DNA of 64,000 bases from an uncultured Gemmatimonadaceae bacterium (GCA_963781585.1 CAWAGQ010000003.1:1-64000), one strand, 5' to 3'. Counted from the stretch's first letter, positions 7,255-62,350 are shown. A program made the numbers and translations. The notes: generated from the sequence alone by a model not told the origin.

Positions 7255-7643
7255 TTCTTTCCTCCGGTGGCGGGCTTGGGCCGCTTGGTACCGTATTTGG
7301 AGCGGCTGCGATTGCGTCCCGTCACGCCGGCGGCGTCGAGCGTGCCGCGCACAATGTGATAACGGACGCCGGGAAGGTCCTTCACCCGGCCACCGCGCAC
7401 CAGCACGATGGAGTGTTCCTGCAGATTGTGTCCTTCACCGGGAATGTAGGCAATCACCTCGAACCCGTTCGTTAGGCGCACCTTGGCGACCTTGCGGAGC
7501 GCCGAGTTCGGCTTCTTGGGCGTGGTGGTATAGACACGCGTGCACACACCTCGGCGAAACGGATTCTGGCGCAACGCGGGCGTCTTGCCCTTTCGGCCCA
7601 CGTCGCGGCGCCCCCGCCGCACGAGCTGGCTGATGGTCGGCAT
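7251..7643 (-). CDS. rpsL: 30S ribosomal protein S12
   Basis: MPTISQLVR...[11 protein letters not shown]...[10 protein letters not shown]. Confidence 0.99.
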
Positions 7644-7697
7644 TCAGTCGGGATTGGACGACAAACACGCCCCGGAGCCGGGGCGCAGGAGACTTGT

Positions 7698-7727
7698 ATC
7701 ATAGACGCGCCCCATGGCGGCAGTCAA
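7698..7727 (-). promoter_or_regulatory. Sigma70-type promoter of the str operon
   Basis: TTGACT-N18-TATGAT, about 55 nt upstream of rpsL. Confidence 0.65.
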
Positions 7728-7792: not shown

Positions 7793-10700
7793 CTATTCTC
7801 CCCCCGGACCCAGCGCGAATCCGCTCTCGGCGAAACTCGACGAGAAGATCCCGGGCAGCGGTGTCTCGATCCCGGGAAGTTCCTCGGGGCGAGGAAGCTC
7901 CTCCCCCTCGATCTCCACCTCCTGGTACCGATACTGCCCGGTGCCGGCCGGAATGAGATGGCCGATGATGATGTTCTCCTTGAGTCCGAGCAGGTCGTCT
8001 TTCGCGCCACGAATGGCAGCGTCGGTCAGAACCCGCGTCGTCTCCTGGAACGACGCGGCCGAGATGAACGACTGCGTGGTCAGGCTCGCTTTCGTGATAC
8101 CCAGAAGCAGCGGCTCGGCGGTGGCCGGCTTGAGCTTCTTCTTCTTCGCCCGCTCGTTCTGTTCCCGGAAGCCCTGCCGGTCCACGTGCTCGCCTTCGAG
8201 GAAGTCGGTGTCAGCCGACTCCACCACCCGGACCTTCTGCAACATCTGCTTGACGATCACGCCGATGTGCTTGTCGTTGATCTTTACGCCCTGCAGCCGG
8301 TACACCTCCTGCACTTCGTTCAGCAGATACTCCTGCACGGCGCGCGGTCCCTTGATCCGCAGAATGTCGTGCGGATTCACGGGCCCCTCGGTGAGCCGGT
8401 CGCCTGCCCGCACCCGGTCGCCCTCGTGCACCCGGAGGTGCTTGCCCGCCGGGACCTCGTACACCTGGGCTTCCTGCGCGTCGTCCACCGCCCACTGCCC
8501 GTCCAGGGACTTGCCGGGGTGCACGAAGATCTCGCGCTTCCCGCGCTTGATGTCACCGAATCGGACGATGCCGTCGATTTCGGAGATGGTGGCCGGGTCC
8601 TTCGGCCGGCGTGCCTCGAACAGCTCGGCGACGCGCGGCAGACCGCCCGTGATGTCGCGCGTCTTGTACGCCTCGCGCGAGATCTTGGCGATGGTCTCTC
8701 CGGCATGGATCGTCTGGCCGTCATCCACCACCAGCTGGGCTCCCACCGGGATGACGAAGTCGCGCACTTTCTTCTCCTTCCCGCCCTTCGACTGCCAGAT
8801 CTCGATGTGCGGATGGAGCCGCTTTTCGCGATCCTCGGTGATCACGCGCTGGCGCAGGCCGGTCAGTTCATCCAGTTCCTCGGAAATCGTCTCGTCCTCC
8901 ACGATGTCGACGAACCGGATGGCGCCCTCCACGTCCGAGATGATCGGATTGGTATACGGGTCCCAGGTGAAGATCGCCTGATCCTTTTTGACTTCCTCGC
9001 CGTCCTTGACGAGCAGCGCCGCGCCTAACGGGACGGCCAGTCGCGCTCCCACGGTAGCGGTGTGGTCGCCCGACGAGCGGATCGTCAGCTCGCCCTCGTA
9101 CGACGTCACGATGCGATGGCCATCGGGGTTCTGCACCGTTACCAGGCGGTCACCGAACTCGATGATGCCGGGGACCTTCGTCTTGCGCACCGTCTGCTCG
9201 GCGATCCGGGCTGCCGTCCCGCCGATGTGGAAGGTACGCAGTGTGAGCTGGGTACCGGGCTCGCCGATCGACTGGGCCGCGATGATCCCCACCGCCTCGC
9301 CCAGATCAACCATGGCCATGGTCGCCAGGTTGCGTCCGTAGCACATCCGGCACAGCCCGCGCGTTGCCTCACAGGTGAGCACCGAGCGGATCCGTACCGC
9401 TTCGATCCCCGCCTCCTCGATGGCGCGCGCCATGTCCTCGTCGATCAGCTGGCCCGCCTCGGCCAGGATGAGCGCGCGACCGACCTCGTCCCGCGCATGC
9501 GGATCGATCACGTCCTCCGCCGCCACGCACCCCACGATCCGCTCCGAGAGGGGCTCGATGATATCCTCGCCCTCCTTCAGCGCCGAGATGTCCAGCCCCT
9601 GGATCGTGCCGCAATCCTCCTCGGTGATCGTGACATCCTGCGCCACGTCCACCAGTCGACGCGTGAGGTAACCGGCATCGGCGGTCTTCAAGGCGGTATC
9701 GGCCAATCCCTTGCGTGCGCCGTGTGTCGAAATGAAGTACTCCAGCACCGACAGCCCTTCCCGGAAGTTCGACTTGATCGGGCTCTCGATGATCTCGCCG
9801 ATGCCGCCGGTAAGCTTCTTCTGCGGCTTCGCCATCAGGCCGCGCATGCCGGCCAGCTGGCGGATCTGATCGCGGCTGCCGCGCGATCCGGAATCGAACA
9901 TCATGAATACCGGGTTGAAGCCCCGATTGGCCTCGCGCATCGTCTTCACCATCGCGTCGGCCACGTCCGAATTGGCGTGCGTCCAGGTGTCGATGACTTT
10001 GTTGTAGCGCTCGCCGTTCGTGATGTTGCCCGTCTGGTACGCGCGCTGGAACCGTTCCACCCGCTCCTCGGCCTCGCCCAGCAGCGTCTCCTTCTCAGGG
10101 GGGATCACCAGGTCCTCCACGCCGATCGAGATCCCGCCGCGCGTGGCGTAGAAGAACCCGAAGTCCTTGAGTCGGTCCAGGAACTCGACCGTCTTGGCCA
10201 GACCGCACTGCCGATACGTTTCGAAGACCAGCTCGCCGAGCGCCTTCTTCTTCATGTCGCGATTCTGGTACTCTATCTCCGTCGGGACGATGGCGTTGAA
10301 CAGTACGCGTCCCGCGGTGGTCACCACCCAGCGCGCGTCGCCGTTGCGGCCGATGGCATATCGTACCGGCGTGTGGTAGGTCACCCGGCCCAGGGACAGC
10401 GCCATCTCCACTTCGGAGGGCGTGGTGAACGATTTCAGCGCCGCCAGGGCCTTGGGATCCCTGGCTGTCTTGTCGAAATCGACCGGCGCCTTGGTCGCGA
10501 AGTAGCACCCCAGGACGATGTCCTGCGACGGCTCGGCGACCGGACGCCCGTCCGACGGTTTCAGAATGTTGTTGGACGAGATCATCAGCAGCCGCGACTC
10601 CAGCTGCGACTCGAACGAGAGCGGCACGTGCACCGCCATCTGGTCGCCGTCGAAGTCGGCATTGAACGCCGCACACACCAGCGGATGGATGCGGATGGCC

Positions 10701-12115: not shown

Positions 12116-16816
<4,701 letters not shown>

Positions 16817-19182: not shown

Positions 19183-19575
19183 GTTTTCGCCTCAGCGTGC
19201 CATGCGGGCGATCTGCGAGGAGCAGTGCGGTGCCGCGACCCCAACGGGAACGCGACGACAAGCCGCGGGCACCTGCGGCGCCGCCAGATGGCGCCCCGGT
19301 TCCACGTAGCCTGCCTGACGTCCCGCGGCGTCGCGGCGCGGACTGCGTCCGGCCGTCACCCGCGTTCAGACTCCCACGGTCTGTTTCACGTCGTCGTGGT
19401 ATCCGACGGTGCGCTCCTCGCCGCTGAGCGGCTGCCCCGCGCAAGGGCCGGTACGGTGGCCGAGCAGGTGGCCTTCGCATCCCGTTCGACGCGTCCCGGC
19501 CCGCTCCAGCTCGACTTCGTCCATGTCATGCCCACCTGCCTAACGTGAATCCAGTTCGTTGTCCCCGACGCGACG

Positions 19576-20118
19576 TCAATATCCCTTCAGCTGCAGATAG
19601 TCCAGTTCGACACTGGTAGGGCGCCCGAACAGGCTCACGCTCACCCGGACCTTCCCCTTGTCGGGCATCACCTCTTCCACGGTCCCGTTGAAATCGGTGA
19701 ACGGACCCTCGGTAATGGTGACGGCCTGACCCACCAGAAACGGTATCTCTTCGGTCGGCTCCTCGGGCTCCACCTCGTCGGCGATGCCGAGGAGTCGGTT
19801 GACCTCGTCCGCCCGAAGCGGCATGGGATCGCGCCCCTGCCCGACAAACTTGATGACCCCCTGAATGCTGTTGATGACGTGCGACGATTCCTGCGTCCAC
19901 GCCATGTCCACCAGCACGTAGCCGGGATACAGTTTGCGCTCGACCGTCACCTTCTTGCCGTTCTTCACTTCCACCACTTCCTGCGTGGGCACCAGCGCCT
20001 GACGAATAAGCCGCTCCTCCGGTGCGTGCCCGTCCTGCTCGATGCGCCGCTGGATCAGCGATCGCACCTTGTTCTCATGTCCGGCCGTGGTCTGAATCGC
20101 ATACCAGCGGTGCTCCAC
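19576..20118 (-). CDS. nusG: Transcription termination/antitermination factor NusG
   Basis: WYAIQT..G.E, YPGYVLV, KOW motif [11 protein letters not shown]. Confidence 0.98.
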
Positions 20119-20854: not shown

Positions 20855-20921
20855 GACTCCGGTGACCGTCGGTCCGACCGGGCTCCACCGCTGCCTGACG
20901 AGGGAGAAAGCCCGCCCCGAA

Positions 20922-24100: not shown

Positions 24101-24882
24101 CCGGACGGCTTCTCGTCGTGAGCGTCCTCGACCTCGGCGTGCACCGTCTCCTCGTCAGGCGCGCCGGCCCCCAGCTGTTTCTGCTCCGACGCACCGGGCG
24201 GCAGCAGCCCCATCTTCTGCTTCAGCGCCAGCAGTTGCGCGTCGGCGCCGGCGCCCCCGGCCGTCTTCTCCAGGAGCTTGAAATCGTGTTGCAGCCGGTC
24301 GCCGGTAATCTCCTCGTCGATCTCGGAGCTCGCTTTGATCATCCGTTCGTTCTGGGTGATCTTCTCCTCCATCCGGGCGAACGCCTCGAACGCCGACTTC
24401 TCCGACATCGCCGACATGGTCTCGGCGATGCGTTTCTGCGCCTGTGCGCGGCGCTGCCGGGCGAGCAGGAGGTTCTTCTTCCGCTTGGCTTCCTCGATCT
24501 TGTCGTTGAGGTCGACCAGCGACGACTTGAGCTTCTCGGTCTCGGCCTGATGCGACTGCCAGGTCGTCTCGAGTTGATGGGCATGCAGCGCGTGCTCGTT
24601 CTGCCTCACGAGTGCCTGCTTGGCCAGGTCGTCGCGGTTCTCCTTCACCGCCAGCATCGCCTTTGCTTCCCAGTCCTGCGCCTTCTTGTATTCGTCGTCG
24701 GCCTGATCGCGCAGCCGCTTCTCGTCGGCGATCGCGGCCGCCACCTGCTGCTTGGCCTTCACCAGCTGGTCGCGCATGTCGACGATGATCTGATTCAGCA
24801 TCTTCTCCGGGTGTTCGGCGGAGGAAATCAGATCGTTGATGTTCGACTTGATCAACGTGGCGAGGCGGTCGAAGAGGCCCAT
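24097..24882 (-). CDS. pspA: PspA/IM30 family protein
   Basis: MGLFDRLATLIKSNIN..EHPEKMLNQ, coiled coil, AFARMEEK. Confidence 0.93.
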   Translation of the reverse strand: MGLFDRLATLIKSNINDLISSAEHPEKMLNQIIVDMRDQLVKAKQQVAAAIADEKRLRDQADDEYKKAQDWEAKAMLAVKENRDDLAKQALVRQNEHALHAHQLETTWQSHQAETEKLKSSLVDLNDKIEEAKRKKNLLLARQRRAQAQKRIAETMSAMSEKSAFEAFARMEEKITQNERMIKASSEIDEEITGDRLQHDFKLLEKTAGGAGADAQLLALKQKMGLLPPGASEQKQLGAGAPDEETVHAEVEDAHDEKPSG

Positions 24883-25543: not shown

Positions 25544-28507
25544 TCAGGCCGACTTCCGTTCGCCGCGGCCGCGCTCCCTCGCCAGGGTCGAGCGAAGATA
25601 CTGGCCCGTGTAGCTGGCAGACACCTGTGCGACCGCTTCCGGCGTGCCCGCAGCGACGATCGCGCCTCCTCGAGCCCCTCCCTCCGGCCCAAGGTCGATG
25701 ATCCAGTCGGCCGTCTTTATGACGTCGAGGTTGTGCTCGATCACCAGGATGGTATTCCCGCGTTCAACCAGGCGGTGGAGAACCTCCAGCAACAGACGGA
25801 CATCCTCGAAATGCAGGCCGGTGGTCGGTTCGTCCAGGATATAGAGCGTGCGCCCCGTGTCTCGCTTGGACAGCTCGGTGGCCAGCTTCACGCGTTGTGC
25901 CTCGCCGCCGGACAGCGTGGTGGCGCTCTGGCCGAGGTGCATGTAGCCCAGTCCAACGTCGGCCAGGGTCTCCAGTTTCTGGCGCACCCGCGGCTGATTC
26001 TGGAAGAAGGCGAGTGCGTCCTCGACAGTCTGCTCGAGCACGTCGGAGATGCTCAGGCCGCGAAAGCGCACCTCGAGCGTCTCGCGATTGTAGCGTTTCC
26101 CCTTGCACACTTCGCACGGCACGTAGACGTCGGGCAGGAAGTGCATCTCGATCTTCACCAACCCGTCCCCCTGACACGCTTCGCACCGACCGCCCTTGAC
26201 GTTGAACGAGAACCGACCGGGACCGTAGCCCCGAATCTTCGCTTCCGGGAGGTCGGCGAACAGCTCGCGAATCGGTGTGAACAGGCCGGTGTAGGTGGCG
26301 GGATTGGACCGTGGTGTGCGACCGATGGGGCTCTGGTCGATGTCGATGACCTTGTCGATGTGCTCGAGCCCCGAGATGGCGCGATGGGCCCCCGGAATCA
26401 CCCGCGCCCGGAAGAAATGCCGCGCCAGCGCGCGATGCAGGATGTCCTCGACCAGCGTCGACTTCCCCGACCCGGACACACCGGTCACCGCCACGAACAG
26501 GCCTAACGGGATTTCCACGTCCAGATCGCGCAGGTTGTGTTCGCGCGCGCCCCGCACCAGGAGGCGCCGGCGCGGGTCGGGAGCCCGTCGCTCGGCCGGT
26601 ACCGGGATACGGAGCGCGCCCGACAGGTACCTTCCGGTCATCGATTCGGGGGCGCGCGTGATGGCACCCACGTCGCCCTCGGCGACCACCCGTCCGCCGT
26701 GACGACCCGCGCCCGGCCCCAGGTCCACCACGTGATCGGCGGCCCGGATCGTCTCCTCGTCGTGTTCGACCACGATCACGGTATTCCCCAGGTCGCGCAG
26801 CTGCTCTAGCGTCCGGAGCAGCCGGGCGTTGTCCCGCTGGTGCAGCCCGATGGACGGTTCATCGAGGATGTAGAGCACCCCCACCAGCCGTGACCCGATC
26901 TGGGTGGCCAGCCGGATGCGCTGCGCCTCGCCGCCCGACAGCGACTCGGCCGCCCTGCCTAACGTGAGATACTCGAGTCCGACGTCAACCAGGAAGCGAA
27001 GGCGCTCGCGCACCTCCTTCAGGATCGGGCCGGCCACCGCCGGGTCGAGCCCCGGGACCCCCTGGTCGCGAGTCGGCACCTGATCGAAGAACCTGAGCGC
27101 ATCGGAAATCGCCATCTCGGCCACGTCGCCGATGTTCCGCGATGCGATCGTGACCGCGAGAGACTCCGGCTTCAGACGGTGGCCACCGCACGCCGCGCAT
27201 GGGCGGACCACCATGTACGCCTCGAGTTCCGCGCGCAGCGTGTCGGAGTCGGTCTCCGCGTACCGGCGCTGGATCGCCGACACGATGCCGTCCCAGGCGA
27301 TGTCGGTTGTGGCGACCGCGGCATTCTTCGCCCTGGACGACGACCCGTGCGCCCGCGACCGGCGCGACCCGCGCGTCGCAGCCGAAGGCTTCGCCCCGCG
27401 CCGTCCGTTTCCGGTCGCCGCCCCTTCCCCCACACCATGCAGGAGCACCGCACGCACGTCGTTCGGCAACGCGCCCCACGGCGTGTTCAGATCGAATCCC
27501 AGGTGCTTCGACAGGCCGGGAAGAATCACGCGGCGCAGATAGCCGTCCGGCGCCCCCCACGGGAGCACCACGCCTTCCAGCAGCGAGATACTGGGATCGC
27601 CCAGAATCAGATCTTCACTCACCTCGCGGCGCGTGCCGAGACCGCTGCAAGCCGGGCAGGCGCCAAAGGGGGAATTGAAGGAGAAATGCCGCGGCTCGAG
27701 GTCGGGCATGGAGAGGCCGCAGAAAGCGCAGCCGTATCGCTCCGAAAACAGATGCGCCGCCGGCTTCCGTTTCGCGTCGTCCCCACCCTCGTGTCGATCC
27801 ACCTGGACGATGCCGTCCGCCAGACGGAGCGCCGTCTCGAGCGAGTCGGTGAGGCGCCCGCGGTCCTCGCGCCTGACCACCAGACGATCCACGACTACCG
27901 AGACGTCGTGATTCTGGCGGCGGTTGAGCCGGGGCGGATCAGCGAGTTCCACCAGCGCGCCGTCCACCATCGCGCGCACGAATCCGTGCCGTCTCGCGTT
28001 GTCGAAGAGTTCGCGAAACTCACCCTTTCGGCCGCGCACCAGCGGCGCGAGGATTTCGATCCGGGTCCCGGACGGCCAGTCCAGCACCGCATCGGCGATC
28101 TGCACGGCGCTCTGCCGTTCGACGGCCCGGCCACAATTCGGGCAATGGGGCGTCCCGGCACGCGCGAAAAGGAGTCGCAGGTAATCGTAAATCTCGGTGA
28201 CCGTGCCCACGGTGGAGCGCGGGTTGTGCCCCGCGGACTTCTGTTCGATGGAAATCGCCGGCGACAATCCCTCGATGGAATCGACGTCCGGCTTCTCCAT
28301 CAGGCCGAGGAACTGCCGCGCATACGCCGACAGGGATTCGACGTAGCGCCGCTGCCCTTCGGCGTAGATGGTGTCGAAAGCGAGCGACGACTTGCCCGAC
28401 CCGGAGAGTCCGGTGACGACGGTGAGGCGGTCGCGCGGCAGCTCGAGGTCGATGTTCTGCAGGTTGTGCTCGCGGGCACCGCGAATGACCAGCGCATCTC
28501 GGGTCAT
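25544..28507 (-). CDS. uvrA: Excinuclease ABC subunit A
   Basis: Two ABC ATPase domains ([26 protein letters not shown]) and zinc fingers. Confidence 0.99.
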
Positions 28508-30053: not shown

Positions 30054-30117
30054 GCGCTGGTATCGCGATGCCGCCCTCCCGTTGTGCAGTGATGCCGACT
30101 CCGGACTGCTCCGGCCG

Positions 30118-40261: not shown

Positions 40262-42682
<2,421 letters not shown>

Positions 42683-43116: not shown

Positions 43117-44478
43117 CTAGTCGTTATGCACCAGCGGCTCAGCGGGCTCTTCCAGATACAGCTCGGCGCCGGCCGCGGTGACGCGATGCGAGATCAGCGG
43201 CAGCGGCAGATCGGCCTCATCTTCGATCCGGATGGCCGCCTCGAGCGCGGCGCGCCCGGCAGCGACCCCCGCCCCGTCCCGGGCGAAGATCGTGGCCAGC
43301 GGCTCCCCCTGGCGGACCAGGTCGCCGGGTCTGGCGCCGATCACGAATCCCACGCTGGGATCCACCTCGTCGTCCACCCGCCGCCGCCCACCGCCAAGGG
43401 CCACCACGCCGCGCCCCACCTCGCGCGGTTCCACGCACGCCACCACGCCGTTCCGACGCGCGGTGAACAGCTCGCATTCGCGCGACTGCGGCAGCCGCGA
43501 GGGATCGTCCACCACGCCTGGGTCGCCGCCCTGCGCCTCCACGATCTCCTGGAACTTCTCGGCCGCCCGCCCCGACGAAATCGACACTTCCATGGCGCGA
43601 ATCGCCGCGTCCCGCGTGTCGGCAGCGCCTGCCAGCACCAGCATTTCCGCGCCTAACGCGTACAGGACACGCATCAGATCGGGCGGCCCTTCGCCCCGCA
43701 GCGCATACGCCGCCTCCTCCACCTCGAGCGCGTTGCCACAGGCGCGACCAAGCGGCCGGTCCATCGCCGTGACCAGTGCCACCACCGGGAGACCGTGGTC
43801 GCGCCCCAACGCCACCATCTGGTGCGCCAGTGCCAACCCCCGGTCCACCTCGGGCAGAAAGGCTCCCGATCCGCGCTTCACATCGAGCACCAGACCGGTC
43901 AGTCCTTCGGCCAGCTTCTTGCTCATGATGCTGGCGGCCATGAGCGGAATGCTCTCCACAGTCGCTGTGGCGTTGCGGAGATCGTACAAGCGACGATCGG
44001 CCGGCGCGATCTCATCGCTCTGCCCCATCAGCACACACCCGATGCGCTCGAGCTGGTCTCGCGCCTCCCGCAGCGTCAAGCGCGTTCGAAATCCGGGGAT
44101 GGACTCGAGCTTGTCGAGTGTCCCGCCCGTGTGGCCGAGACCGCGCCCGGACATCATTGGGACGCAGACCCCAAGTGATGACACCAGCGGCGCCAGCACG
44201 AGCGAGACCTTGTCACCCACCCCGCCGGTCGAATGCTTGTCGACGCGAGGCCGCGCCAGATCGGAGAGGTCGAGCGAGGCGCCGCTGGCCACCATCGCTT
44301 CGGTGAGCGCCGCCGTCTCCTCGCGATCGAGTCCACGGATGAAGATCGCCATCAGGAGCGCCGCCATCTGATAGTCGGGGATCCGCTCCTGCAGAAATTC
44401 CCCCAGCAGCTCGCTCCATTCCTCCGGCGCGATCCGGCCGCCGTCGCGCTTCCGTTCGATCAGGCGATTGGCGACCAT
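43117..44478 (-). CDS. pdp: Pyrimidine-nucleoside/thymidine phosphorylase
   Basis: DKHSTGGVGDK, SGRGLGHTGGTLDKLESIPG. Confidence 0.95.
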   Translation of the reverse strand: MVANRLIERKRDGGRIAPEEWSELLGEFLQERIPDYQMAALLMAIFIRGLDREETAALTEAMVASGASLDLSDLARPRVDKHSTGGVGDKVSLVLAPLVSSLGVCVPMMSGRGLGHTGGTLDKLESIPGFRTRLTLREARDQLERIGCVLMGQSDEIAPADRRLYDLRNATATVESIPLMAASIMSKKLAEGLTGLVLDVKRGSGAFLPEVDRGLALAHQMVALGRDHGLPVVALVTAMDRPLGRACGNALEVEEAAYALRGEGPPDLMRVLYALGAEMLVLAGAADTRDAAIRAMEVSISSGRAAEKFQEIVEAQGGDPGVVDDPSRLPQSRECELFTARRNGVVACVEPREVGRGVVALGGGRRRVDDEVDPSVGFVIGARPGDLVRQGEPLATIFARDGAGVAAGRAALEAAIRIEDEADLPLPLISHRVTAAGAELYLEEPAEPLVHND

Positions 44479-46408: not shown

Positions 46409-46495
46409 CCGCGCGCACCGGCGGCGGGGCGCCCGACCTGACATCCCGGGGCGGGCTTCAGTGGCCTCACGGCGCCGCCGCGCCTGACGACGATC

Positions 46496-47748: not shown

Positions 47749-49848
<2,100 letters not shown>

Positions 49849-49859: not shown

Positions 49860-50420
49860 ATGCCAGAGTCGATCGATCATACCGCTCACCCCATGCTCTC
49901 GCTCACGCGGGCGTCGCTGCTCTCCCTGCGTGCGGCCCTGCTGCGCGACAGCGGTCCACGGGCCGCGGTGGCCCTGCAGGAAGCCGGCTACGCTGGCGGC
50001 GACTCCCTGTTCGCGGCGTTTCGGCGATGGCTTGCGGCCCGTTCCGATATCGCCGCCGAGGATCTCGACGTCGAGACCTTCGAGCAGCGGATCTCGGAGT
50101 TTTTCGGCGAGACGGGATGGGGCCACATCCAGATCGGCACGATCGACCAGGTAGTGGCGACGCTCGACTCGGCCGACTGGGGCGAGGCCGACGACGCGGA
50201 GCAAACCGATCATCCCGCCTGCCACATCACGACCGGCATGTTCGCCGATCTGTTCGGACGTCTGGCCGGCGCTCCGGTGGCCGTCCTGGAAGTGGAATGC
50301 CGTTCGGCCGGGCATCCCCGGTGCCGCTTCCTGGTCGGGAATCCGGAGATGATGGACGCCGTCTACGACGAGATGGGACGCGGCGCCACCTACCAGCTGG
50401 CGGTGCACGCCGCCGCCTAA
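49860..50420 (+). CDS. V4R domain protein
   Basis: GWG, C..TG, EVECRSAG..RCRF. Confidence 0.8.
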   Translation: MPESIDHTAHPMLSLTRASLLSLRAALLRDSGPRAAVALQEAGYAGGDSLFAAFRRWLAARSDIAAEDLDVETFEQRISEFFGETGWGHIQIGTIDQVVATLDSADWGEADDAEQTDHPACHITTGMFADLFGRLAGAPVAVLEVECRSAGHPRCRFLVGNPEMMDAVYDEMGRGATYQLAVHAAA

Positions 50421-50435
50421 CGCTCCCCGGCGCTC

Positions 50436-52442: not shown

Positions 52443-53212
52443 GGCGTCGATGGTGGTGGACCGCGGCCCTCGCGGCGGTGGGGTCATGTATCACGATCTC
52501 GACCGACCCACACGAGGTCATCTCGATCGAGTTCGTCGAACTTCCATGGCCCGCCGTTGTGGTCGGCGACACCCTGCGCGACCAGGGCGGCGCGGTGGCG
52601 CCCCTCTCGGCCCGTCTGTTCGAGGCGTCCGGAGCGGAAGTGACAGACGCCCAGATACAGTTCCTGAGTCGCGACGCCACGGTCACAATCGTCAACGGCG
52701 ATCTGGTGGTCGGCGGCTCCACCACCGGCATGGCCCGACTGCTGGCCTCGGGAGCCGGCCTTCAAAGCGTCGTCAGGCAGATCCAGGTAGTACCGCGTCC
52801 CGACTCGCTGGCGCCCGAGGGGACGATCGACACGCTCCGCCTCGTGCTTCCCGATTCGCCCCAGCAGAACCGGTCGGGCGACCTGAAAGTGAAGATGGTG
52901 TCGGTCGACGCCGGTGGCGCCGCCACCCCGGTTGGTTCCTGGATCGTTTCGTTCGCGCTCGAATTCGACGGAGCGCCAGTTGCCCCCGGCGACACGTCAC
53001 ATCTGTACCTCGCCGACGAAGCCGGCCGGGTGTCCTCCTCCGACACCACCGACACCCAGGGGATTGCGTCGCGCCGCATCCGGTTCAAGGTGCTTCCCGG
53101 AACAACTATACCGCCGCTCGACTCGGTGATCGTGATCGTCACGGCATCCTACCGTGGGAGCCCGCTTGCCGGCACGCCGGTGCGACTCGTCCTTCCCGTC
53201 ACTCCGAAATAG
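52439..53212 (+). CDS. Putative lipoprotein, beta-rich (Ig-like)
   Basis: MRRRWWW...AVGSC lipobox-like signal; start overlaps the parA stop. Confidence 0.65.
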   Translation: MRRRWWWTAALAAVGSCITISTDPHEVISIEFVELPWPAVVVGDTLRDQGGAVAPLSARLFEASGAEVTDAQIQFLSRDATVTIVNGDLVVGGSTTGMARLLASGAGLQSVVRQIQVVPRPDSLAPEGTIDTLRLVLPDSPQQNRSGDLKVKMVSVDAGGAATPVGSWIVSFALEFDGAPVAPGDTSHLYLADEAGRVSSSDTTDTQGIASRRIRFKVLPGTTIPPLDSVIVIVTASYRGSPLAGTPVRLVLPVTPK

Positions 53213-53252: not shown

Positions 53253-55097
53253 ATGTACGCGCGCGGCGAAGGTGAGCGTGCCGAGCCCGGTACGCTGACC
53301 TCGCTCTTCTTCGATACCACGCGGGAGATCGACAAGCCGGACGCGCTACAGGTGCGAGTGGAGGGCACGTGGAAGCCCATTTCGCACGGCACGCTGCGGG
53401 AGCGCGTGCGACATGTGGCGCTCGGGCTGCTCGCCCTCGGGGTGCGCCGGGGCGACCGCGTGGCCATTCTCTCGGAGAACCGGCCCGAGTGGGCCATCGC
53501 CGACTGGGCCTGCCTGACGATCGGCGTGGTGGTCGTGCCGATCTACCCCTCGCTGCCGGCCGAACAGGTCTCCTATCTGCTGATCGACAGCGGTGTGACC
53601 GCGATCTTCACGTCGATCGCCTCGCAGACCGAGAAGATCGTCTCGGTGCGCAGCCAGGCGCCCACGCTGCGTACCGTCATCGCCTTCGACGACAAGCCGA
53701 CCCGCGGCGCCGACATGGCGCTCCGCGACCTGGAGGCGAGGGGCGCGTCGGCCGACACGCCGGACCGCGCCGCGCAGTACGAGCGGGATGCCAGGGCGAT
53801 CCGCCCCGACGACCTGGCTACGGTGATCTACACCTCCGGGACGACCGGCGTCCCGAAAGGGGCGATGCTGTCTCACGACAACATTCATTCGGAGATCGTC
53901 GCGATCCGCCGGGTCATCCCGGCCGACACGCACGACACGGAGCTCAGCTTCCTCCCTCTCAGCCACGTGTTTCAGCGCGTCGCGGACTACTACCTGTTCG
54001 CGTGCGGCGCCACCATCGCCTACGTCGATTCGTTCGACCTCGTGCCCATCGCCATGCAGGAAGTGCGCCCCACGCTCGCGTGCTCGGTACCCCGCGTGTA
54101 CGAGAAGCTGTACGCGCGGGTGCTGGACAACGCGATGTCGGGCGGTCCCGTGAAGAAGCGGATCTTCTCGTGGGCCCGAGCCACCGGGAATCGCTGGGCG
54201 AACGAGCGCGTGGACGGCCGCACTCCCTCGCGTTGGCTTTCGGCGCGCTACGCGCTGGCCCGGCGGCTGGTGTTTTCGAAGATCAAGGCCCGCACCGGGG
54301 GCAACCTGCGCTACTTCATTTCCGGGGGCGCGCCCCTCGCGCCGGATATCAATGCGTTCTTCTACGCCGCCGGACTCACGATTCTCGAGGGGTACGGTCT
54401 CACCGAGACGTCGGCGGTGATCTCGGTGAATACGCCCGCACACTTCCGCATCGGGACCGTGGGCCGACCGATCGGCGGCGTGGAGGTCCGCATCGATGCC
54501 GATGGCGAGATCCTCACGCGCGGACCGCACGTCATGCAGGGATACCTCAACAAGCCCGACGCCACGCGTGAAGCCATCGACGCCGAAGGGTGGTTCCACA
54601 CCGGGGACATCGGCCGGATCGACGATGGGTTCATCCGGATTACCGATCGCAAGAAGGATCTGATCGTGACCGCCGGCGGAAAGAAGATCGCGCCGCAACC
54701 GATCGAGAACCTCGCCAAGACCAACAAGTACGTGAGTCAGGCGGTCATGATCGGCGACCGCCGCAAGTACCCGGCCATGCTGGTGGTGCCGAACTTCGAG
54801 CAGCTCGAGAAGTGGGCGAAGCTGCGCAATATCATCTGGACCGATCGCGCCCAGCTCCTGGCCATGCCGACGATCAACGCGAAGATGAAGAAGGAACTGG
54901 GCGACACGCTCATGGGTCTGGCGAGCTTCGAGACGCCGAAGAAGGTCGGCCTCCTGGTCCACGACTTCACGGTCGAGTCGGGCGAGCTGACGCCGACGCT
55001 CAAGGTGCGGCGGCGGATCATCGAGACGAAGTATCGGGACCTGATCGACTCGCTCTACGACTCGAGCGAGCACGCGGTGATCGACGCCCGGCCGTAG
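53253..55097 (+). CDS. Long-chain fatty acid--CoA ligase
   Basis: YTSGTTGVPKG, EGYGLTET, FHTGDIG, DRKKD. Confidence 0.93.
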   Translation: MYARGEGERAEPGTLTSLFFDTTREIDKPDALQVRVEGTWKPISHGTLRERVRHVALGLLALGVRRGDRVAILSENRPEWAIADWACLTIGVVVVPIYPSLPAEQVSYLLIDSGVTAIFTSIASQTEKIVSVRSQAPTLRTVIAFDDKPTRGADMALRDLEARGASADTPDRAAQYERDARAIRPDDLATVIYTSGTTGVPKGAMLSHDNIHSEIVAIRRVIPADTHDTELSFLPLSHVFQRVADYYLFACGATIAYVDSFDLVPIAMQEVRPTLACSVPRVYEKLYARVLDNAMSGGPVKKRIFSWARATGNRWANERVDGRTPSRWLSARYALARRLVFSKIKARTGGNLRYFISGGAPLAPDINAFFYAAGLTILEGYGLTETSAVISVNTPAHFRIGTVGRPIGGVEVRIDADGEILTRGPHVMQGYLNKPDATREAIDAEGWFHTGDIGRIDDGFIRITDRKKDLIVTAGGKKIAPQPIENLAKTNKYVSQAVMIGDRRKYPAMLVVPNFEQLEKWAKLRNIIWTDRAQLLAMPTINAKMKKELGDTLMGLASFETPKKVGLLVHDFTVESGELTPTLKVRRRIIETKYRDLIDSLYDSSEHAVIDARP

Positions 55098-55098: not shown

Positions 55099-55761
55099 CT
55101 ATCGCGCCCGCGAGAGGGGAACCGGTCTGGTCGGCGACGCGGTGCGTTCACCCACCCACCACGCCTGGTCGCGGGCGAGCTCGCGTACATCCGGCGGGAG
55201 CGGCGTGCCCGCCGGTGCGACGACGCGCCCCCCCGGCCGCACCGCGCGCAGGGCGTCCGCGACCAGCGTCGGGTCCTGTGCCACCGCCTGGTCGATGGCG
55301 GTGCCGCGCGCGCACTCTGGCGCGAGCGGCATGCGCCCATCGACCAGGACGATCGAGACGCCGTCGCCGGGGGCGACCGAGTGCGGCGGATTGACCAGCA
55401 GGCATTCTGCGTCGTAGGCCGCGAACAGCGCGCTCGCCAGCGTGCCCCAGCCACCGGTCAACAGGTAGGGCCCTCCCGGCGTCCGGATGTCGAGGAGCGC
55501 CGCGGCGCGCAGCAGCGCCTCATCGTCGGGCGCGCCGGCGTCGGCGTGGATCGTTCCGGCGGCGCCCTCGGGCGCCTGTCGCCCCTGGACGCCGCGAAAG
55601 TCGGCCACGTAGTCGCGAATCGGGTACCGCGCCGAGCAGACCGGGCAGCCTAACGAGCCGGAGGCGATGTAGCGCCCCTCCTGCCGATCGATGCTGGCCA
55701 CCAGCCCGGAGGGCTCGTGCGCTTCGACGCAGCGAAGCGCGCCGACCAGTTCGATGTGCAT
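55099..55761 (-). CDS. Hypothetical protein, Trm112-like N-terminus with methyltransferase-like remnant
   Basis: LRC...LGCPVC..YPI and LRAVRPGG. Confidence 0.5.
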   Translation of the reverse strand: MHIELVGALRCVEAHEPSGLVASIDRQEGRYIASGSLGCPVCSARYPIRDYVADFRGVQGRQAPEGAAGTIHADAGAPDDEALLRAAALLDIRTPGGPYLLTGGWGTLASALFAAYDAECLLVNPPHSVAPGDGVSIVLVDGRMPLAPECARGTAIDQAVAQDPTLVADALRAVRPGGRVVAPAGTPLPPDVRELARDQAWWVGERTASPTRPVPLSRAR

Positions 55762-56480
55762 CACGCCCTCGCCAGGCGGATCTCTTCGATGTCGACGTCG
55801 GGCGGCCTGGTGACCGCGTACAGCACGGCGTCGGCGACCGCCTCGGGTCGCAGCATCCGTGCACGGGGGGTGAGACCCGCGCGCTGGCCGGGATCGACGC
55901 TGTCCCACATGGTCGTATCGACCGGCCCCGGAGACACCAGCGAGACCCGGATGCCGCTGTCGCGCAGTTCCTCGCGCAGCACTTCGTGCACGGCGCGCGC
56001 CCCGAACTTGCTGGCCGCATAGGCCGCGTTGCCCGGGAACGCCCGGTGATCGGCGATCGACCCCACGGTCACCACCTGCCCGGTTCCGCGTTCGCGCATC
56101 TGTGGCAGCAGCGCGTTTACGAGGCGGTACGGCGCCAGGAGGTTCACCCCGAGCAGGCGCGCGAAGTCCTCGGGCGGCAGGGACCCCACCGGGGCGAGGA
56201 CGAACAGGCCGGCGTTCTGCACCAGCACGTCGGGCGCCCCGCCGAGGAGTTGCCGCATCTCGGCGAGCGTCGCGTCCACGTCGTCGCTGCGGGCGAGGTC
56301 GCAGCCCACGGCACGCGCCAGTCCGCCTAACGACTCGGCGGCCGCGGTCAGGCGCGGCGATTCCCGCCCGAGCAGCAGCGTGCGCGCCCCCGCGCCCACC
56401 AGCGCGCGAGCAATGGCATAACCGATCCCGCGCGACGCCCCGGTCACCAGCGCGGTCCGTCCCTCGAGGACCTCCGTCAT
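55761..56480 (-). CDS. SDR family oxidoreductase
   Basis: TGASRGIG, NAG, YAASK. Confidence 0.93.
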   Translation of the reverse strand: MTEVLEGRTALVTGASRGIGYAIARALVGAGARTLLLGRESPRLTAAAESLGGLARAVGCDLARSDDVDATLAEMRQLLGGAPDVLVQNAGLFVLAPVGSLPPEDFARLLGVNLLAPYRLVNALLPQMRERGTGQVVTVGSIADHRAFPGNAAYAASKFGARAVHEVLREELRDSGIRVSLVSPGPVDTTMWDSVDPGQRAGLTPRARMLRPEAVADAVLYAVTRPPDVDIEEIRLARA

Positions 56481-56531
56481 GGCGGCGATCGCCCGGTCCG
56501 GGTCACGCCGGTGTCCGCGGCCGCGGCCTCG

Positions 56532-56945
56532 TCAGGCACCGTCGTACTCCACCACGTTGTTCTCGGTCTCCCAGAGCCGGATGCGCGCGAGCGTCGCCGG
56601 CGCCACCCGCGGAGCCAGAATCTGCCAGAACGCCACCACCACATTCTCGGCCGTCGGAATCACACCATGCAGAAAATCCACCTCGAGATTCAGGTTGCGA
56701 TGATCCACCTTGTCGATGATCTCGCGCTTCACCAGGTCGCGCAGCCGCGCCAGGTCGAACACGTAGCCGGTGCGCTGCTCGACCGATCCGCGCACCGATA
56801 CCTCAAGCACGTAGTTGTGCCCGTGCCAGTTCGGGTTGTTGCACTTGCCGAACAGCGCGGCGTTCTCGGCGTCGCTGAGCGCCGGATTATGGACCCGATG
56901 CGCCGCGTTGAAATGCAGACGCCGGGTCACGGTCACATTGGGCAT
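56532..56945 (-). CDS. queD: 6-carboxytetrahydropterin synthase / PTPS
   Basis: FNAAHR, GKCNNPNWHGHNY, DHRNLN, TAEN, WET. Confidence 0.88.
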   Translation of the reverse strand: MPNVTVTRRLHFNAAHRVHNPALSDAENAALFGKCNNPNWHGHNYVLEVSVRGSVEQRTGYVFDLARLRDLVKREIIDKVDHRNLNLEVDFLHGVIPTAENVVVAFWQILAPRVAPATLARIRLWETENNVVEYDGA

Positions 56946-58695: not shown

Positions 58696-61157
58696 GGCTG
58701 GGGGCCTCCAGCGGTTGCCAGCACCGGCGAATCGGCAACGAGGTCGGGGAGTTCCGCGGGCTCCGACCGGCTGGTGCGCGACGCACCGGTCGCCTCGTCG
58801 TACTCCACCAGGACCACGCGGTCGAGCTCGTCGCGCACCGAGTCGATATGGGTGATGAGCACCACCTGCTCGAACCGGTCCTGCAGGCCGCGGAGCAGCC
58901 CCACGACGTTGCGCCGCCGCAGCTCATCCAGCGACCCGAAGATCTCATCGAGCACCAGCAGGGAGAAGGCCTGGCCGGCACGCTCGGCGATCATCTGGGA
59001 GATGGCCAGGCGAAGCACCAGGTTCGACAGGTCCTCCTCGCCACCCGAAATCACCGGTTTGGGAATGCCTTCCTCGAGCACCACCACGTTGTACTGGTCG
59101 TCGAGCTCGAGCTCCGAATAGCGGCCATCGGTGAGCGCGTTGAGGAATCCGCTGGCGACTTCCGACAGCTCCGGGCGCAGCTGGAGGTTCAGATCGGTCC
59201 GGAGATCGGAGTACGCGCGATCCAGCTCGTCGTGCAGCCGCTTCTCCCGCAGCAACCGATCGTGCGTCTCCTGCATCCGCTCCATCTCCTGCCGCGACCG
59301 CTCGGCATGCGCCACGGCTTCGGCGACCGTCGACTCCTCGGCGGTGGCGGAAATCACTCCAGCCGCCGCGACGTGCGCTGTCTCGGCGGCGGCATCGTAC
59401 CGCGCATGGAGCTGCGCGTGCTCCTCTTCGGACGTGCGCGTACCCTCGTACTGGGCGCGCAGCGCGGCCACCTGGGCTCGCACCTGATCGAGGGCCTCCA
59501 GCGCGCGACCGCGCGCGGCGGTCAGTGTCGGCTCGCGCTCGAGCAGCGCGCTGAACCGGGTGACGCGTTCGTTCAGGGGCGCCAGCCGAGAGACCTCCTG
59601 GCGCAGCGCCTCGTGGCGCGCCGCGTCGTATCCGACCGGGAGGGCATCGAGATCGCGACGCAGCGTCTCGTGCCGCGCCTGCTTGCCCGCTATGTCGCGC
59701 CCCAGCTGCCCCAATTCCTGCACCGCCGACTGGACGCGGGCCAGCTGGCGTTCGAGGGTCGCCACCTCCTGGGTGAGCGCCCGACGCTGCGCATCCATCG
59801 CCTTCACCTCGTCCGGCATATCCTCGAGTTGCTCCAGGCGCGTAGTGAAGTATCGGCCGTCCACCTCGATGGTCTCGATCTGTTCCTCGAGCTGATCGAG
59901 AACCGTCCTGAAGCTCGCGCCCAGCACCCGCGTGCAGGTGGGACAGACGCCCTCCTCACCCAGGTCGACGATGCGGTCACGCTGCGCCTTGAGCTCCCCC
60001 CATTGCCGCCGCAGTGCGTCGCGCCTGGTTTCGGCTTCCTGTTTATCGCGTACCCATTCGGTGCGGCGTGCTTCCAGAACGCCCAACGCTTCCTCGAGGT
60101 CGCGGCGCTTGCGCTCCAGCCGTTCGGTGACGTCCTCCTCCAGCTGCGGTGCGCGGGCGATCGTGGTGTGGCGCGCTCGCAGGCGTTCGAGTTCGTCGGT
60201 CAGCGCACGCAGGGTCTCGGCGATCGCCTGGCGGCGTCCTTCCTCGCGGGCCAGCGCTTCCAGCCGGCCGAATTCGTCGACCACTTCGTTGAGGGGCGCG
60301 AGCTCGGCTGCCAGACGTTCCAGCTCGAGCCGGGCCGTGGCAATCTCCCGCAGCTCGCCGTCGATCCGCTCCAGATCGCGTGCCAGCGCGATCTCGTCAT
60401 TTTCACGCACCCGCAGTTCGGCCAGCATCGCCTGGCTCGCGTCTCGCGCGCGCTGTGCGGCTTCCCAGCGCGGCACCATGGCCGCGAACGCCGCCTCCGC
60501 CGCCTGGCGCCGCTGCACGGCCTCGAGACGCCGGCCGGCCGCCGCGGCGGCGCGCGTCCGCGCGTCGTCCAGCATCCTGATCACGGCATCCGCGTTCGGG
60601 AGCGCGCTCCGCAGACCGGCAATCTCCGCGGTGACCAGCTTGCGGCGCTCGCGAACCAGGCCCTGCGCTGTCCGCAGGCGATCGTAGCCCAGGACGCGCG
60701 ACAGGAACTGTGCGCGTTCCGTGGGCGCCATCGCCGCCATCACGTTCAGTTCATTCTGCCCGGTGAAATACGTGTGGAAGAACTCGGATCGCGTCATGCC
60801 CAGGCGACGCTGGAGCAACTCGGCCACGCCCGTGATGGTGCTGGCGATCGGCGCGCCGCCGCCGTCGAGGTAGAGTTCCGCACTCGTCAGGCCGCGCTGC
60901 ACGCGATAGCGATGCCCGGCCAGTTCGAAATCCAGCTCGACGCTCACCGGGGCCCGCGGTCCGGCGCGCGTGAAGCGGATCGAGTCTCGCGTCCCCCGCG
61001 CCGCCGGCTGCCCGTACAACGCCCAGGCGATCCCTTCGAGGATCGTCGTCTTCCCGCTGCCGTTGGGACCGATGATCCCGGTCAGGCCGAGATCGAACTC
61101 GACCCGCGTGTCGGCGTGTTGCCGGAAATTGACCAGGTGAACGCTGTTGAGTCTCAC
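58692..61157 (-). CDS. sbcC: SbcC/Rad50-type SMC ATPase
   Basis: GPNGSGKTT, coiled coil, CPTC zinc hook, ISGGE, LDEIFGSLD. Confidence 0.92.
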   Translation of the reverse strand: MRLNSVHLVNFRQHADTRVEFDLGLTGIIGPNGSGKTTILEGIAWALYGQPAARGTRDSIRFTRAGPRAPVSVELDFELAGHRYRVQRGLTSAELYLDGGGAPIASTITGVAELLQRRLGMTRSEFFHTYFTGQNELNVMAAMAPTERAQFLSRVLGYDRLRTAQGLVRERRKLVTAEIAGLRSALPNADAVIRMLDDARTRAAAAAGRRLEAVQRRQAAEAAFAAMVPRWEAAQRARDASQAMLAELRVRENDEIALARDLERIDGELREIATARLELERLAAELAPLNEVVDEFGRLEALAREEGRRQAIAETLRALTDELERLRARHTTIARAPQLEEDVTERLERKRRDLEEALGVLEARRTEWVRDKQEAETRRDALRRQWGELKAQRDRIVDLGEEGVCPTCTRVLGASFRTVLDQLEEQIETIEVDGRYFTTRLEQLEDMPDEVKAMDAQRRALTQEVATLERQLARVQSAVQELGQLGRDIAGKQARHETLRRDLDALPVGYDAARHEALRQEVSRLAPLNERVTRFSALLEREPTLTAARGRALEALDQVRAQVAALRAQYEGTRTSEEEHAQLHARYDAAAETAHVAAAGVISATAEESTVAEAVAHAERSRQEMERMQETHDRLLREKRLHDELDRAYSDLRTDLNLQLRPELSEVASGFLNALTDGRYSELELDDQYNVVVLEEGIPKPVISGGEEDLSNLVLRLAISQMIAERAGQAFSLLVLDEIFGSLDELRRRNVVGLLRGLQDRFEQVVLITHIDSVRDELDRVVLVEYDEATGASRTSRSEPAELPDLVADSPVLATAGGPQP

Positions 61158-62350
61158 TCCGGCTCCGTCGACACCGCCAGCGCCGATTTCTCGGCCGAAT
61201 CCGCTTCCCTGAGGTAGCGCAGCCCGAGCTCCACGAGCTCTTCCCGGTCGACATCGCTCTGGATCGGGCGGTTGCGCAGCTTGTCGCGCACGATCTCCAC
61301 CAGCGAGGGACGCCGACCCGGCGCGCCCGACGCCGACGTGCGGTGTACTTCCGGCCGCCGTGCATCCAGTTGAAAGTGCAGGGCGCGCCGCCGGTACTCG
61401 CGCAACAGCCGATGATCCAGCTCGCGAGCCACGTGACGCGGGATGTCCTGGATCACTTGTCGCACGATCTTCTCTTCGATGCCGCCCGCGACCTGATCGA
61501 CGTTGGCCCGGATCGCGGCGTCGATGTCGGCGGCGGTCTGGGCGCGCGCGCGCACCACCGGGAGATCCACCAGGCCGCGGGCCGACCTGATGCGGTGGAA
61601 GGTCCGTTTACCCGTCTCCAGGTCGAACTCCACCATCCCCTTGCCGCCCAGACGCAGCGCCTTTTCCTCGGCCTGCTCGCCCCAGATGTTCGAACTGGTA
61701 TACTCGATCGCTCCGGAGTAGAACGCGTTAGGCTTGATCTCGTGATATACGTGGTAGTGTCCCAGCGCCTGGTAACTCCATAGCGACGAGCGCAGCTCGG
61801 CAGGATCGAGCTGGCGCGCCGCGCGCTCGGGATCGGAGCCTGCCGGCACGATGCCCGCAACCGGACCGTGGATCACGAGGACGTTCCAGCGGAAGTCGGG
61901 ATCCGGACCGAGCACCACCTTCCCGACCGCATCGCTCGGCACCGCGAACACGGAGAGATCGCGCTCCGGGAACGAGATACGCCTGGCCTCCATGTCTGCC
62001 ACGTGGATGCCCAGTGGAATGAACAGCCGGAGGATGCATCCCGCCTCGACCGATCGGGGCGTATCGTGATTGCCAGCGACGATCACGACGATCGTGTCCG
62101 GGAGGGCGTGGACCAGGCGCGAGAACTGTGTGAACGCGTGCAGAATGGCCGGATTGGACGGCCGCACGTTGTGGAACACATCGCCCGCGATGCAGACAAT
62201 GTCCGGACGCAGCGCAATGATGCCATCGATCGCGTCGCGAACGGCGGACGCGACGTCTGCCTCCCGCTGGTTGATGCCGGCGGGAGTCTGCCGTTGGAAT
62301 TGCCGGTGCCCGAGGTGAAAGTCAGAGAGATGTACGAGACGCATGGTCAC
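61154..62350 (-). CDS. sbcD: SbcD/Mre11 nuclease
   Basis: SDFHLG, AGDVF, GNHD, LGHYH, YSG. Confidence 0.92.
   Translation of the reverse strand: MTMRLVHLSDFHLGHRQFQRQTPAGINQREADVASAVRDAIDGIIALRPDIVCIAGDVFHNVRPSNPAILHAFTQFSRLVHALPDTIVVIVAGNHDTPRSVEAGCILRLFIPLGIHVADMEARRISFPERDLSVFAVPSDAVGKVVLGPDPDFRWNVLVIHGPVAGIVPAGSDPERAARQLDPAELRSSLWSYQALGHYHVYHEIKPNAFYSGAIEYTSSNIWGEQAEEKALRLGGKGMVEFDLETGKRTFHRIRSARGLVDLPVVRARAQTAADIDAAIRANVDQVAGGIEEKIVRQVIQDIPRHVARELDHRLLREYRRRALHFQLDARRPEVHRTSASGAPGRRPSLVEIVRDKLRNRPIQSDVDREELVELGLRYLREADSAEKSALAVSTEPE

Follow-up and report, generated by a model that had tools for sequence, protein, structure and literature searches.

A hyper-abundant octamer written into core genes of Gemmatimonadaceae, its one-letter dialects and its candidate role as a DNA recognition word

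To our knowledge, hyper-abundant DNA words that are specific to a lineage are known from very few groups, the Neisseriaceae, the Pasteurellaceae and the cyanobacteria, and in these groups they point to sequence-specific machinery that shapes gene flow. The DNA uptake sequences (DUS) and uptake signal sequences (USS) occur at a density of about one per kb, and competent cells preferentially take up DNA bearing them through a cognate receptor. Here we examine a stretch of 64,000 nt from an uncultured Gemmatimonadaceae bacterium (GCA_963781585.1, CAWAGQ010000003.1:1-64000; hereafter the window; GC content 67.2% from base counts), in which the octamer CGTTAGGC (the T-form; GCCTAACG on the other strand) is written into core genes, and we follow this word and its variants into related genomes. 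Uptake sequences are described as favouring one orientation inside reading frames (PMC2346458), and dialects as a hallmark of DUS (PMC3630211). The cyanobacterial octamer HIP1 (highly iterated palindrome 1, GCGATCGC) is given as 15-300-fold in excess, with conservation of sites between genomes (PMC5861425); it has variants in some lineages, its function was long a puzzle (PMC5861425, PMC4390886), and a role as uptake signal has now been proposed for it (10.64898/2026.06.24.733823).

The word resembles DUS and USS in being short, exact and, in the regions sampled, hyper-abundant, in occurring in both orientations, within and between genes, in its presence in core and genome-maintenance genes and in favouring one orientation inside reading frames; as with DUS, there are one-letter lineage dialects (T, C, C/G and [C/G]G-T forms). 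Its density is one per 0.7-3.8 kb, it measures 8-9 bp rather than 9-12 bp, and it lacks the paired inverted terminator copies of Neisseria DUS, the nearest two copies in the window lying 456 bp apart and the non-coding copies being single. With HIP1 it shares its length, a comparable excess (about 18-40-fold), its embedding in coding sequence and the use of common sites by different genomes, although for the last the overlap here has P 0.11-0.29 on 7 possible sites. HIP1, however, is palindromic, tied to two orphan methylases and phylum-wide, whereas our word is asymmetric and confined to scattered lineages of one family. Like Chi (GCTGGTGG in Escherichia coli) and the FtsK-orienting polar sequences (KOPS, GGGNAGGG), it is an octamer found once per few kb. 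In KOPS the fourth position is free and is followed by AGG. Chi and KOPS are both polar to replication, and the FtsK-orienting KOPS/SRS show a strong strand skew, above 80-90%, that switches at dif; by contrast, our word tracks genes (12:5 overall, 6:4 in the right half, where gene directions are mixed) and one of its dialects, described below, is unbiased.

The word in the window and its recoding of leucine codons

Exact counting returned 17 copies in the window, with GCCTAACG on the + strand in 12 and on the - strand in 5 (Table 1), the same number, positions and strand split as in a first-pass annotation of this DNA. The three one-mismatch copies which that annotation added do exist, but they are just 3 of 41 in the window, and GCCTGACG makes up 15 of the 41. 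Its estimate of 2-3 copies per 64 kb agrees with a zero-order expectation of about 2.4 from base counts, and stricter null models gave lower values: 0.93 for a Markov model of order 1, 0.42 for order 3 (Poisson p 7e-22), and a mean of 0.83 with a largest value of 5 in dinucleotide-preserving shuffles, none of 100 of which reached 17. The excess is thus about 18-40-fold, and the word ranks first by over-representation among the 17,961 8-mer classes of the window. When synonymous codons were shuffled, pooled over the 57 predicted genes, the mean was 2.77 (a value containing the copies outside the shuffled codons, which were held fixed) and the maximum 6, and 17 was reached in 0 of 300 shuffles. 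A Markov model of maximal order (order 6) does expect 17.1 copies, but this expectation is circular, since the 7-mers that enter the model are themselves products of the word. The codon-pair null proposed in the first-pass annotation would be circular for the same reason if drawn from this genome, TTA-GGC being almost absent outside the word. The edges of the word are sharp (GCCTAAC 18, CCTAACG 19, the full word 17), and it holds 17 of the window's 27 CTAA/TTAG tetramers.

A codon-likelihood scan predicted 57 genes covering 87% of the window, named with NCBIfam and including rpsG, rpsL, rpoC, rpoB, rplL/J/A/K, nusG, secE, rpmG, cysS, uvrA, recF, gyrB, ligA and sbcCD. Eleven of the 17 copies read xCG-TTA-GGC in the sense direction (rpoC, two each in rpoB and uvrA, glpK, an enoyl-CoA hydratase, thymidine phosphorylase, ligA, a 221-aa protein and a short-chain dehydrogenase/reductase, SDR), and the other six consist of one CGC-CTA-ACG (rpsL), one CCT-AAC (sbcD), two overlaps with stop codons and two copies between predicted genes. 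The earlier frame tally, with two CCT-AAC copies and a single intergenic one, matches ours if DUF721 starts at the GTG at 40258. The density of the word is about equal in coding and non-coding DNA, with 13 copies wholly inside genes, 2 between them and 2 over stops.

TTA had been noted as otherwise rare, and it is indeed the rarest leucine codon of the window (15 in 18,545 codons); 11 of these 15 lie inside the word, in xCG-TTA-GGC, and 2 more are one letter off. Among the 50 [Ala/Pro/Ser/Thr]-Leu-Gly tripeptides of the window, 11 are recoded as xCG-TTA-GGC, against 0.09 predicted from codon usage, and the mismatches to the word at these 50 sites are bimodally distributed (11 exact, 2 one-off, 15 two-off, 22 three or four off). 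The other frames are used less: 1 of 40 possible xGC-CTA-ACG sites, 0 of 29 C-GTT-AGG-C sites and 1 of 6 G-CCT-AAC-G sites are recoded. The word is written where it costs the protein least, mainly at [Ala/Pro/Ser/Thr]-Leu-Gly with TTA in place of CTC or CTG, and also in non-coding DNA and in antisense.

Relatives, orthologous sites and dialects

The rpoC product of the window matches metagenome-assembled genomes of Gemmatimonadaceae, the best at 89% identity, and a search with this product was used to find loci of relatives (L001 and so on), which were sampled around rpoBC; genes in these loci were predicted imperfectly, and some copies classed there as non-coding may be coding. Across 35 Gemmatimonad loci (555 kb) there are 39 copies of the T-form, all in 6 loci (115 kb): L003 (4), L004 (6), L013 (10), L017 (12), L053 (5) and L023 (2). 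The remaining 29 Gemmatimonad loci (440 kb), with the nearest relatives L001 and L002 among them, have none, and 45 loci of other phyla (907 kb) have 3. A tblastn search of a plasmid collection with ParA gave no Gemmatimonad record among the 15 matches listed. In L013 and L017, 10-12 copies fall within 21-24 kb, compared with 17 per 64 kb in the window, and synonymous shuffles in L013, L017 and L053 reached the observed count in 0 of 300 each. The enrichment therefore extends beyond the window, to the rpoBC neighbourhoods of five other genomes; its restriction to the window would have spoken against the first-pass inference. A tree of RpoC and RpoB (36 rows, quick IQ-TREE, LG+G4) groups the window first with L001 and L002, which have no T-form, next with two carriers of the T-form, L013 and L003, and places L004, L017 and L053 elsewhere; counts of gains and losses on this tree set aside loci shorter than 10 kb and L023 as uninformative.

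Codon alignments showed that every sense copy stands on a conserved [Ala/Pro]-Leu-Gly where other genomes read xCG-CTC-GGC or xCG-CTG-GGC, so that the protein is unchanged. In six word-bearing genomes 32 of 103 possible sites are recoded as xCG-TTA-GGC, whereas five word-free relatives recode 0 of 53. The leucine codon at recoded sites differs at two positions, and from CTC one of the two changes is a transversion. All three rpoBC copies of the window stand at sites that are recoded in L013 and L017 too, one of them also in L004. Across 10 aligned genes, 7 possible sites are common to the window, L013 and L017, of which 3, 4 and 5, respectively, are recoded, an overlap that on these 7 sites is not beyond chance (P 0.11-0.29). 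Common sites as proof of common descent are thus unsupported. Identity at third codon positions between these genomes is 0.55-0.67 overall, near saturation. Neutral descent therefore does not account for the copies, which some other force holds in place or regenerates and with which the conserved genes are nearly saturated.

Because the rarest leucine codon is used with the protein unchanged, because copies also lie in non-coding and antisense positions, and because relatives with the same codon usage are copy-free, the data support maintenance of the word as DNA, rather than its origin as a side effect of codon usage or of the encoded protein. An artefact of codon usage or protein sequence is ruled out by the synonymous shuffles and by the copy-free relatives with the same proteins. 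The selection or mutational drive at the DNA level inferred by the first-pass annotation is in this respect supported, but the polarity that an analogy with Chi or KOPS would imply was not seen.

The T-form belongs to a word family with the consensus (T)CGTNAGGC, whose spelling differs by one letter between Gemmatimonadaceae lineages. The 17-kb locus L020 uses TCGT[C/G]AGGC, with 12 copies of CGTCAGGC against 1.3 expected and 13 of CGTGAGGC against 1.5, counts that synonymous shuffles reached in 0 of 300 each. Eighteen of its 25 dialect copies carry the leading T, and these occupy five of the six combinations of frame and strand (7 sense, 10 antisense, 1 non-coding) using rare codons such as AGG, CCT, CGT and NNT; the T-form, by comparison, is limited in frame by its own stop codons. 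L017 uses [C/G]GTTAGGC: GTTAGGC occurs 24 times against 2.0 expected, preceded by C in 12 cases and by G in 7, and there are 12 T-forms with no C-form. T- and C-forms co-occur in the window, L013 and L053. A second word of the window, TCGTCAGGC, has 10 copies against 0.9 expected; synonymous shuffling gave a mean of 4.75, 4 fixed copies included, and reached 10 in 0 of 300. It is found 4 times in L001 (0.12 expected) and 4 times in L025 (0.18 expected), both without the T-form, 5 times in L013 (0.40 expected), is also raised in L003 and L053 and, more weakly, occurs 3 times in L002 (0.42 expected; 13 of 300 shuffles reach 3). On the RpoB/RpoC tree it requires at least four gains or losses. Without the leading T, the 8-mer CGTCAGGC is within codon expectation in the window (15 versus 12.2; 46 of 300 shuffles reach 15), and the A-form CGTAAGGC has 0 copies there.

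Several further candidates were dropped. L023 was set aside as a carrier of the G-dialect, since 10 of its 15 CGTGAGGC copies sit in one repeat array. This complex repeat, at 14408-14764 just downstream of rpoC, is made up of a pair of direct 100-bp units (97% match) and, after them, an inverted array of 58 bp; its 10 copies of CGTGAGGC are a string in common with the L020 dialect. In L021 the word TCCCGTCT was discarded with 5 of its 9 copies forming a heptamer tandem repeat, a non-coding stretch of about 5 copies of CCCGTCT at 22644-22679. GAGCGGAT and ATGATGTT were not retained as lineage words, being mildly raised in nearly all loci, and are taken as conserved coding sequence.

What may read the word, and rival explanations

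We favour tentatively, and at somewhat short of even confidence, a DNA-level recognition word of the DUS, USS and HIP1 kind, that is, by analogy with those systems, a putative tag of self DNA for uptake and recombination. A sequence-specific DNA-binding system would recognise the word, and its reader may have shifted or exchanged its specificity between lineages; copies would accumulate and persist because DNA bearing the word is favoured, and word-bearing alleles could spread by molecular drive and/or selection. An uptake tag was chosen because DUS and USS are the established mechanism for an excess of at least 20-fold in both orientations, in core genes and with dialects. More doubtful is the wider proposal that Gemmatimonadaceae have a third, independent uptake-sequence-like system, in which the specificity determinant of a reader of (T)CGTNAGGC moves or switches, and one-letter dialects in core genes are the result, written into rpoB and rpoC even where this takes the rarest codon. 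A new word family in Gemmatimonadota, a widespread and little-studied soil phylum, would provide a handle on selective DNA exchange, and the dialect differences between close relatives would be a natural experiment on the co-evolution of recognition specificity and genome composition. TTA is nearly unused in relatives, so gain or loss of the T-form can be read directly from alignments, and such words would offer a simple marker with which to bin sequences and recognise foreign DNA in these genomes.

Several observations weigh against the uptake-tag reading, the main ones being patchy distribution on the tree, sense-strand preference and absence of competence evidence. Carriers of the T-form are scattered on the RpoB/RpoC tree, with at least five gains or losses, and the approximately unbiased (AU) test rejects the six carriers as one clade (p 4e-58; the group was named after the tree had been seen). 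This distribution is patchy, not clade-wise as for DUS and USS; DUS dialects follow phylogeny, and a patchy pattern is more usual for methylase or restriction specificities that are mobile. Among the 54 copies in six genomes, 32 read xCG-TTA-GGC in sense, 8 are antisense (6 xGC-CTA-ACG and 2 CCT-AAC), 11 are non-coding and 3 lie at gene edges. Per possible site, this corresponds to 32 of 103 for the sense form versus 6 of 77 for antisense xGC-CTA-ACG (Fisher p 1.7e-4), a preference left unexplained by codon cost because relatives use CTA at least as often as TTA and a single change turns CTG into CTA. No uptake, competence, ComP-like receptor, pilin or methylase gene was found in the window (57 proteins compared with NCBIfam, 19 with Pfam), neither database yielded a candidate reader protein there, and the literature searched held no report of natural transformation in Gemmatimonadetes. 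Within rpoB and rpoC no high-identity tract that would mark recent recombination was seen between word-bearing genomes, third-position identity being flat at 0.42-0.78 per 100 codons. In addition, the even spacing discussed below is found only in the window, and all data on relatives come from around rpoBC.

A role in chromosome structure, in which the word is read by a nucleoid-associated protein or one linked to an orphan methylase and the spacing of copies along the chromosome, not DNA exchange, is under selection, as in the older sense of HIP1, is unlikely, even though the copies in the window are spaced more evenly than random (coefficient of variation, CV, 0.57, P 0.0085-0.0095), also when the 10 copies of TCGTCAGGC are added (CV 0.61, P 0.004). 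Many possible sites close to existing copies remain unconverted, genomes retain sites in common although synonymous change is saturated, and the patchiness together with an IUPAC-like degeneracy (Y, S at one position) resembles methylase specificities; HIP1 has likewise been argued to be selected and periodic (PMC5861425). The evenness was, however, not reproduced in L013, L017, L020, L004 and L053 (7 tests, P 0.07-0.98) and so is not seen as a general property, the copies of TCGTCAGGC do not significantly avoid those of the T-form in the window (P 0.18), the word is not palindromic, and the window proteins include no methylase or nucleoid-protein candidate by NCBIfam or Pfam. We consider it improbable that the word is a Chi-like hotspot, an octamer read on one strand by a helicase-nuclease of the RecBCD/AddAB type that protects or repairs self DNA. 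As an exact 8-mer that is over-represented, species-specific and found about once per 3.8 kb, a density similar to that of Chi in E. coli, with a strand bias of 12:5 in the window, it would fit such a role. Chi motifs also differ between taxa (PMC8022716). The bias nevertheless mirrors gene direction: copies split 6:1 in the left 28.6 kb, with every gene on the - strand, and 6:4 in the remainder to the right, which has 16.8 kb of coding DNA on + and 14.8 kb on -; the coding strand rather than the chromosome is followed in the + genes ligA and enoyl-CoA hydratase too, the L020 dialect counts 7 sense to 10 antisense, and no replication polarity of the T-form was seen in the window, where the direction of replication is not established. 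The classical Chi octamer GCTGGTGG, on the other hand, has 23 copies in the window, 21 of them on the - strand, against 2.9 (order 1) or 12.0 (order 3) expected; being abundant and far more skewed than the T-form, it is therefore the better Chi-like candidate already in the genome, possibly a native Chi-like word or simply a skewed one. Nothing on RecBCD or AddAB in the phylum emerged from the literature search, and NCBIfam identified no such genes in the window.

Less probable again is a mutational or repair bias, by which a methylase with short-patch repair, or a deamination hotspot, would turn near-matches into a functionless word. The T- and C-forms are one C-to-T transition apart and co-occur in three of the genomes, antisense GC-CTA-ACG copies stand where relatives read GC-CTG-ACG, and patchiness fits mobile methylases. 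Yet relatives mostly have CTC at the recoded sites, from which TTA needs a C-to-A transversion plus a transition, so that pure deamination of CTG to TTA is ruled out; only 2 of the 50 possible sites hold a one-off intermediate, the C-form is missing from L017 despite its 12 T-forms, and copies persist at identical sites although synonymous change is saturated. The excess of about 20-40-fold argues in the same direction, Vsr/Dcm repair shifting word counts in E. coli only modestly. The least probable of the explanations weighed is a signal in RNA or translation, with CG-UUA-GGC in mRNA acting as a rare-codon pause or as a binding or processing site. It would account for the 32 sense copies among 54, for sense sites being used four times more than antisense ones and for the sense orientation of all 3 in-frame copies in genes opposite to rpoBC, but not for the non-coding, gene-edge and antisense copies, for flanking CG and GGC that are fixed beyond the needs of a codon signal, or for related dialects in all frames and on both strands. 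An Rfam scan of the window found no family overlapping any copy of the word, its sole matches being 4 tRNAs.

The first-pass annotation knew of no description of the motif, and we found none in the literature searched: the full-text matches for the word or its complement, among those listed, are in unrelated papers and apparently represent primers or incidental strings, and four IUPAC forms of the word had no full-text match. The literature on Gemmatimonas and Gemmatimonadetes yielded nothing on over-represented words, uptake sequences, Chi, HIP1, competence or AddAB/RecBCD, and a term search found no mention of Gemmatimonas in a survey of abundant oligonucleotides (PMC2843746).

Feature coordinates and neighbouring observations

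Table 1. Copies of the words and genes of the lasso-peptide cluster in the window (for CGTTAGGC, the strand is the one reading 5'-CGTTAGGC-3')
Feature	Position	Strand	Context
CGTTAGGC	7470..7477	+	in rpsL (- gene), sense CGC-CTA-ACG (R-L-T)
CGTTAGGC	9023..9030	-	rpoC CCG-TTA-GGC (P-L-G, aa 1028); site also recoded in L004, L013, L017
CGTTAGGC	12194..12201	-	rpoB GCG-TTA-GGC (aa 1535); site also recoded in L013, L017
CGTTAGGC	14177..14184	-	rpoB GCG-TTA-GGC (aa 874); site also recoded in L013, L017
CGTTAGGC	19538..19545	-	non-coding, between nusG stop and rplK
CGTTAGGC	26501..26508	-	uvrA CCG-TTA-GGC (aa 667)
CGTTAGGC	26957..26964	-	uvrA ACG-TTA-GGC (aa 515)
CGTTAGGC	30048..30055	+	over stop codon of 301-aa protein (CGT-TAG)
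CGTTAGGC	35672..35679	-	glpK GCG-TTA-GGC
CGTTAGGC	38603..38610	+	enoyl-CoA hydratase (+ gene) GCG-TTA-GGC
CGTTAGGC	40299..40306	-	38 nt past recF stop, non-coding by prediction; GCG-CCT-AAC-GAT if DUF721 starts at GTG 40258
CGTTAGGC	43651..43658	-	thymidine phosphorylase GCG-TTA-GGC
CGTTAGGC	48074..48081	+	ligA (+ gene) TCG-TTA-GGC
CGTTAGGC	50415..50422	-	over stop codon of 175-aa V4R-domain protein (GCC-TAA)
CGTTAGGC	55648..55655	-	221-aa protein TCG-TTA-GGC
CGTTAGGC	56325..56332	-	SDR oxidoreductase TCG-TTA-GGC
CGTTAGGC	61726..61733	+	sbcD (- gene), sense AAG-CCT-AAC-GCG
One-mismatch copy CCCTAACG	20716		
One-mismatch copy ACCTAACG	31428		
One-mismatch copy GCCTAACC	41835		
TCGTCAGGC	19997..20005	-	nusG, ATT-CGT-CAG-GCG
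TCGTCAGGC	20893..20901	-	non-coding, between tRNA-Gly and tRNA-Tyr
TCGTCAGGC	24152..24160	+	antisense in pspA, GCG-CCT-GAC-GAG
TCGTCAGGC	32822..32830	-	non-coding, between convergent gene ends
TCGTCAGGC	36472..36480	+	antisense in glpK, CGC-CTG-ACG-AAC
TCGTCAGGC	46482..46490	-	non-coding, between convergent gene ends
TCGTCAGGC	52770..52778	+	sense in 244-aa protein, GTC-GTC-AGG-CAG, rare AGG used
TCGTCAGGC	53512..53520	-	antisense in acyl-CoA ligase, TGC-CTG-ACG-ATC
TCGTCAGGC	56529..56537	+	over queD stop codon, GCC-TGA-CGA
TCGTCAGGC	60884..60892	+	antisense in sbcC, GGC-CTG-ACG-AGT
PqqD-like chaperone	6285-6581	-	NCBIfam/Pfam
B2 protease	5861-6163	-	NCBIfam/Pfam
Asn-synthase-like cyclase	3957-5864	-	NCBIfam/Pfam
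HprK-related kinase	2393-3241	-	NCBIfam/Pfam
PF14907 nucleotidyltransferase	1181-2389	-	NCBIfam/Pfam

The copies of GCTGGTGG, at 8728, 13978, 14161, 44755 and 46254 for example, are mostly in frame as G-CTG-GTG-G; two are antisense in + genes and three non-coding, all of these on the - strand. Near 28 kb, at the end of the stretch of uniform gene direction, GC skew declines in strength from about -0.055 to about -0.02.

A lasso-peptide gene cluster occupies 1181-6581 on the - strand, beside rpsG (6784-7254) and near rpoB and rpoC, in the place usually taken by fusA/tuf, which follow rpsG. Several lasso peptides inhibit RNA polymerase, and the position of the cluster beside rpoB and rpoC is for this reason perhaps no accident. 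L003 and L013 have homologues of both the PqqD and the B2 gene, and L017 has one of the PqqD gene; all three loci carry the T-form. The rpoB gene itself (12116-16804, - strand) encodes 1562 aa, about 200-400 aa more than profile models, and therefore has large lineage-specific insertions. Further along, recF, DUF721 and gyrB lie together at 39077-42682 without dnaA or dnaN upstream, recF coming after the gene for enoyl-CoA hydratase, and a homologue of the CYCXC-family (seleno)protein is found at 34913-35224 on the - strand (NF041379, 100 bits, cutoff 90). Finally, sites of the GCGTAACGG type cluster at 940-1050, with four within about 110 bp at 973-1046 and a GTTAC inverted partner nearby, and again at 57635-57685, where two are accompanied by a GTTAC partner at 57640-57680; from their sequence, both clusters look like putative operator arrays for a regulator.

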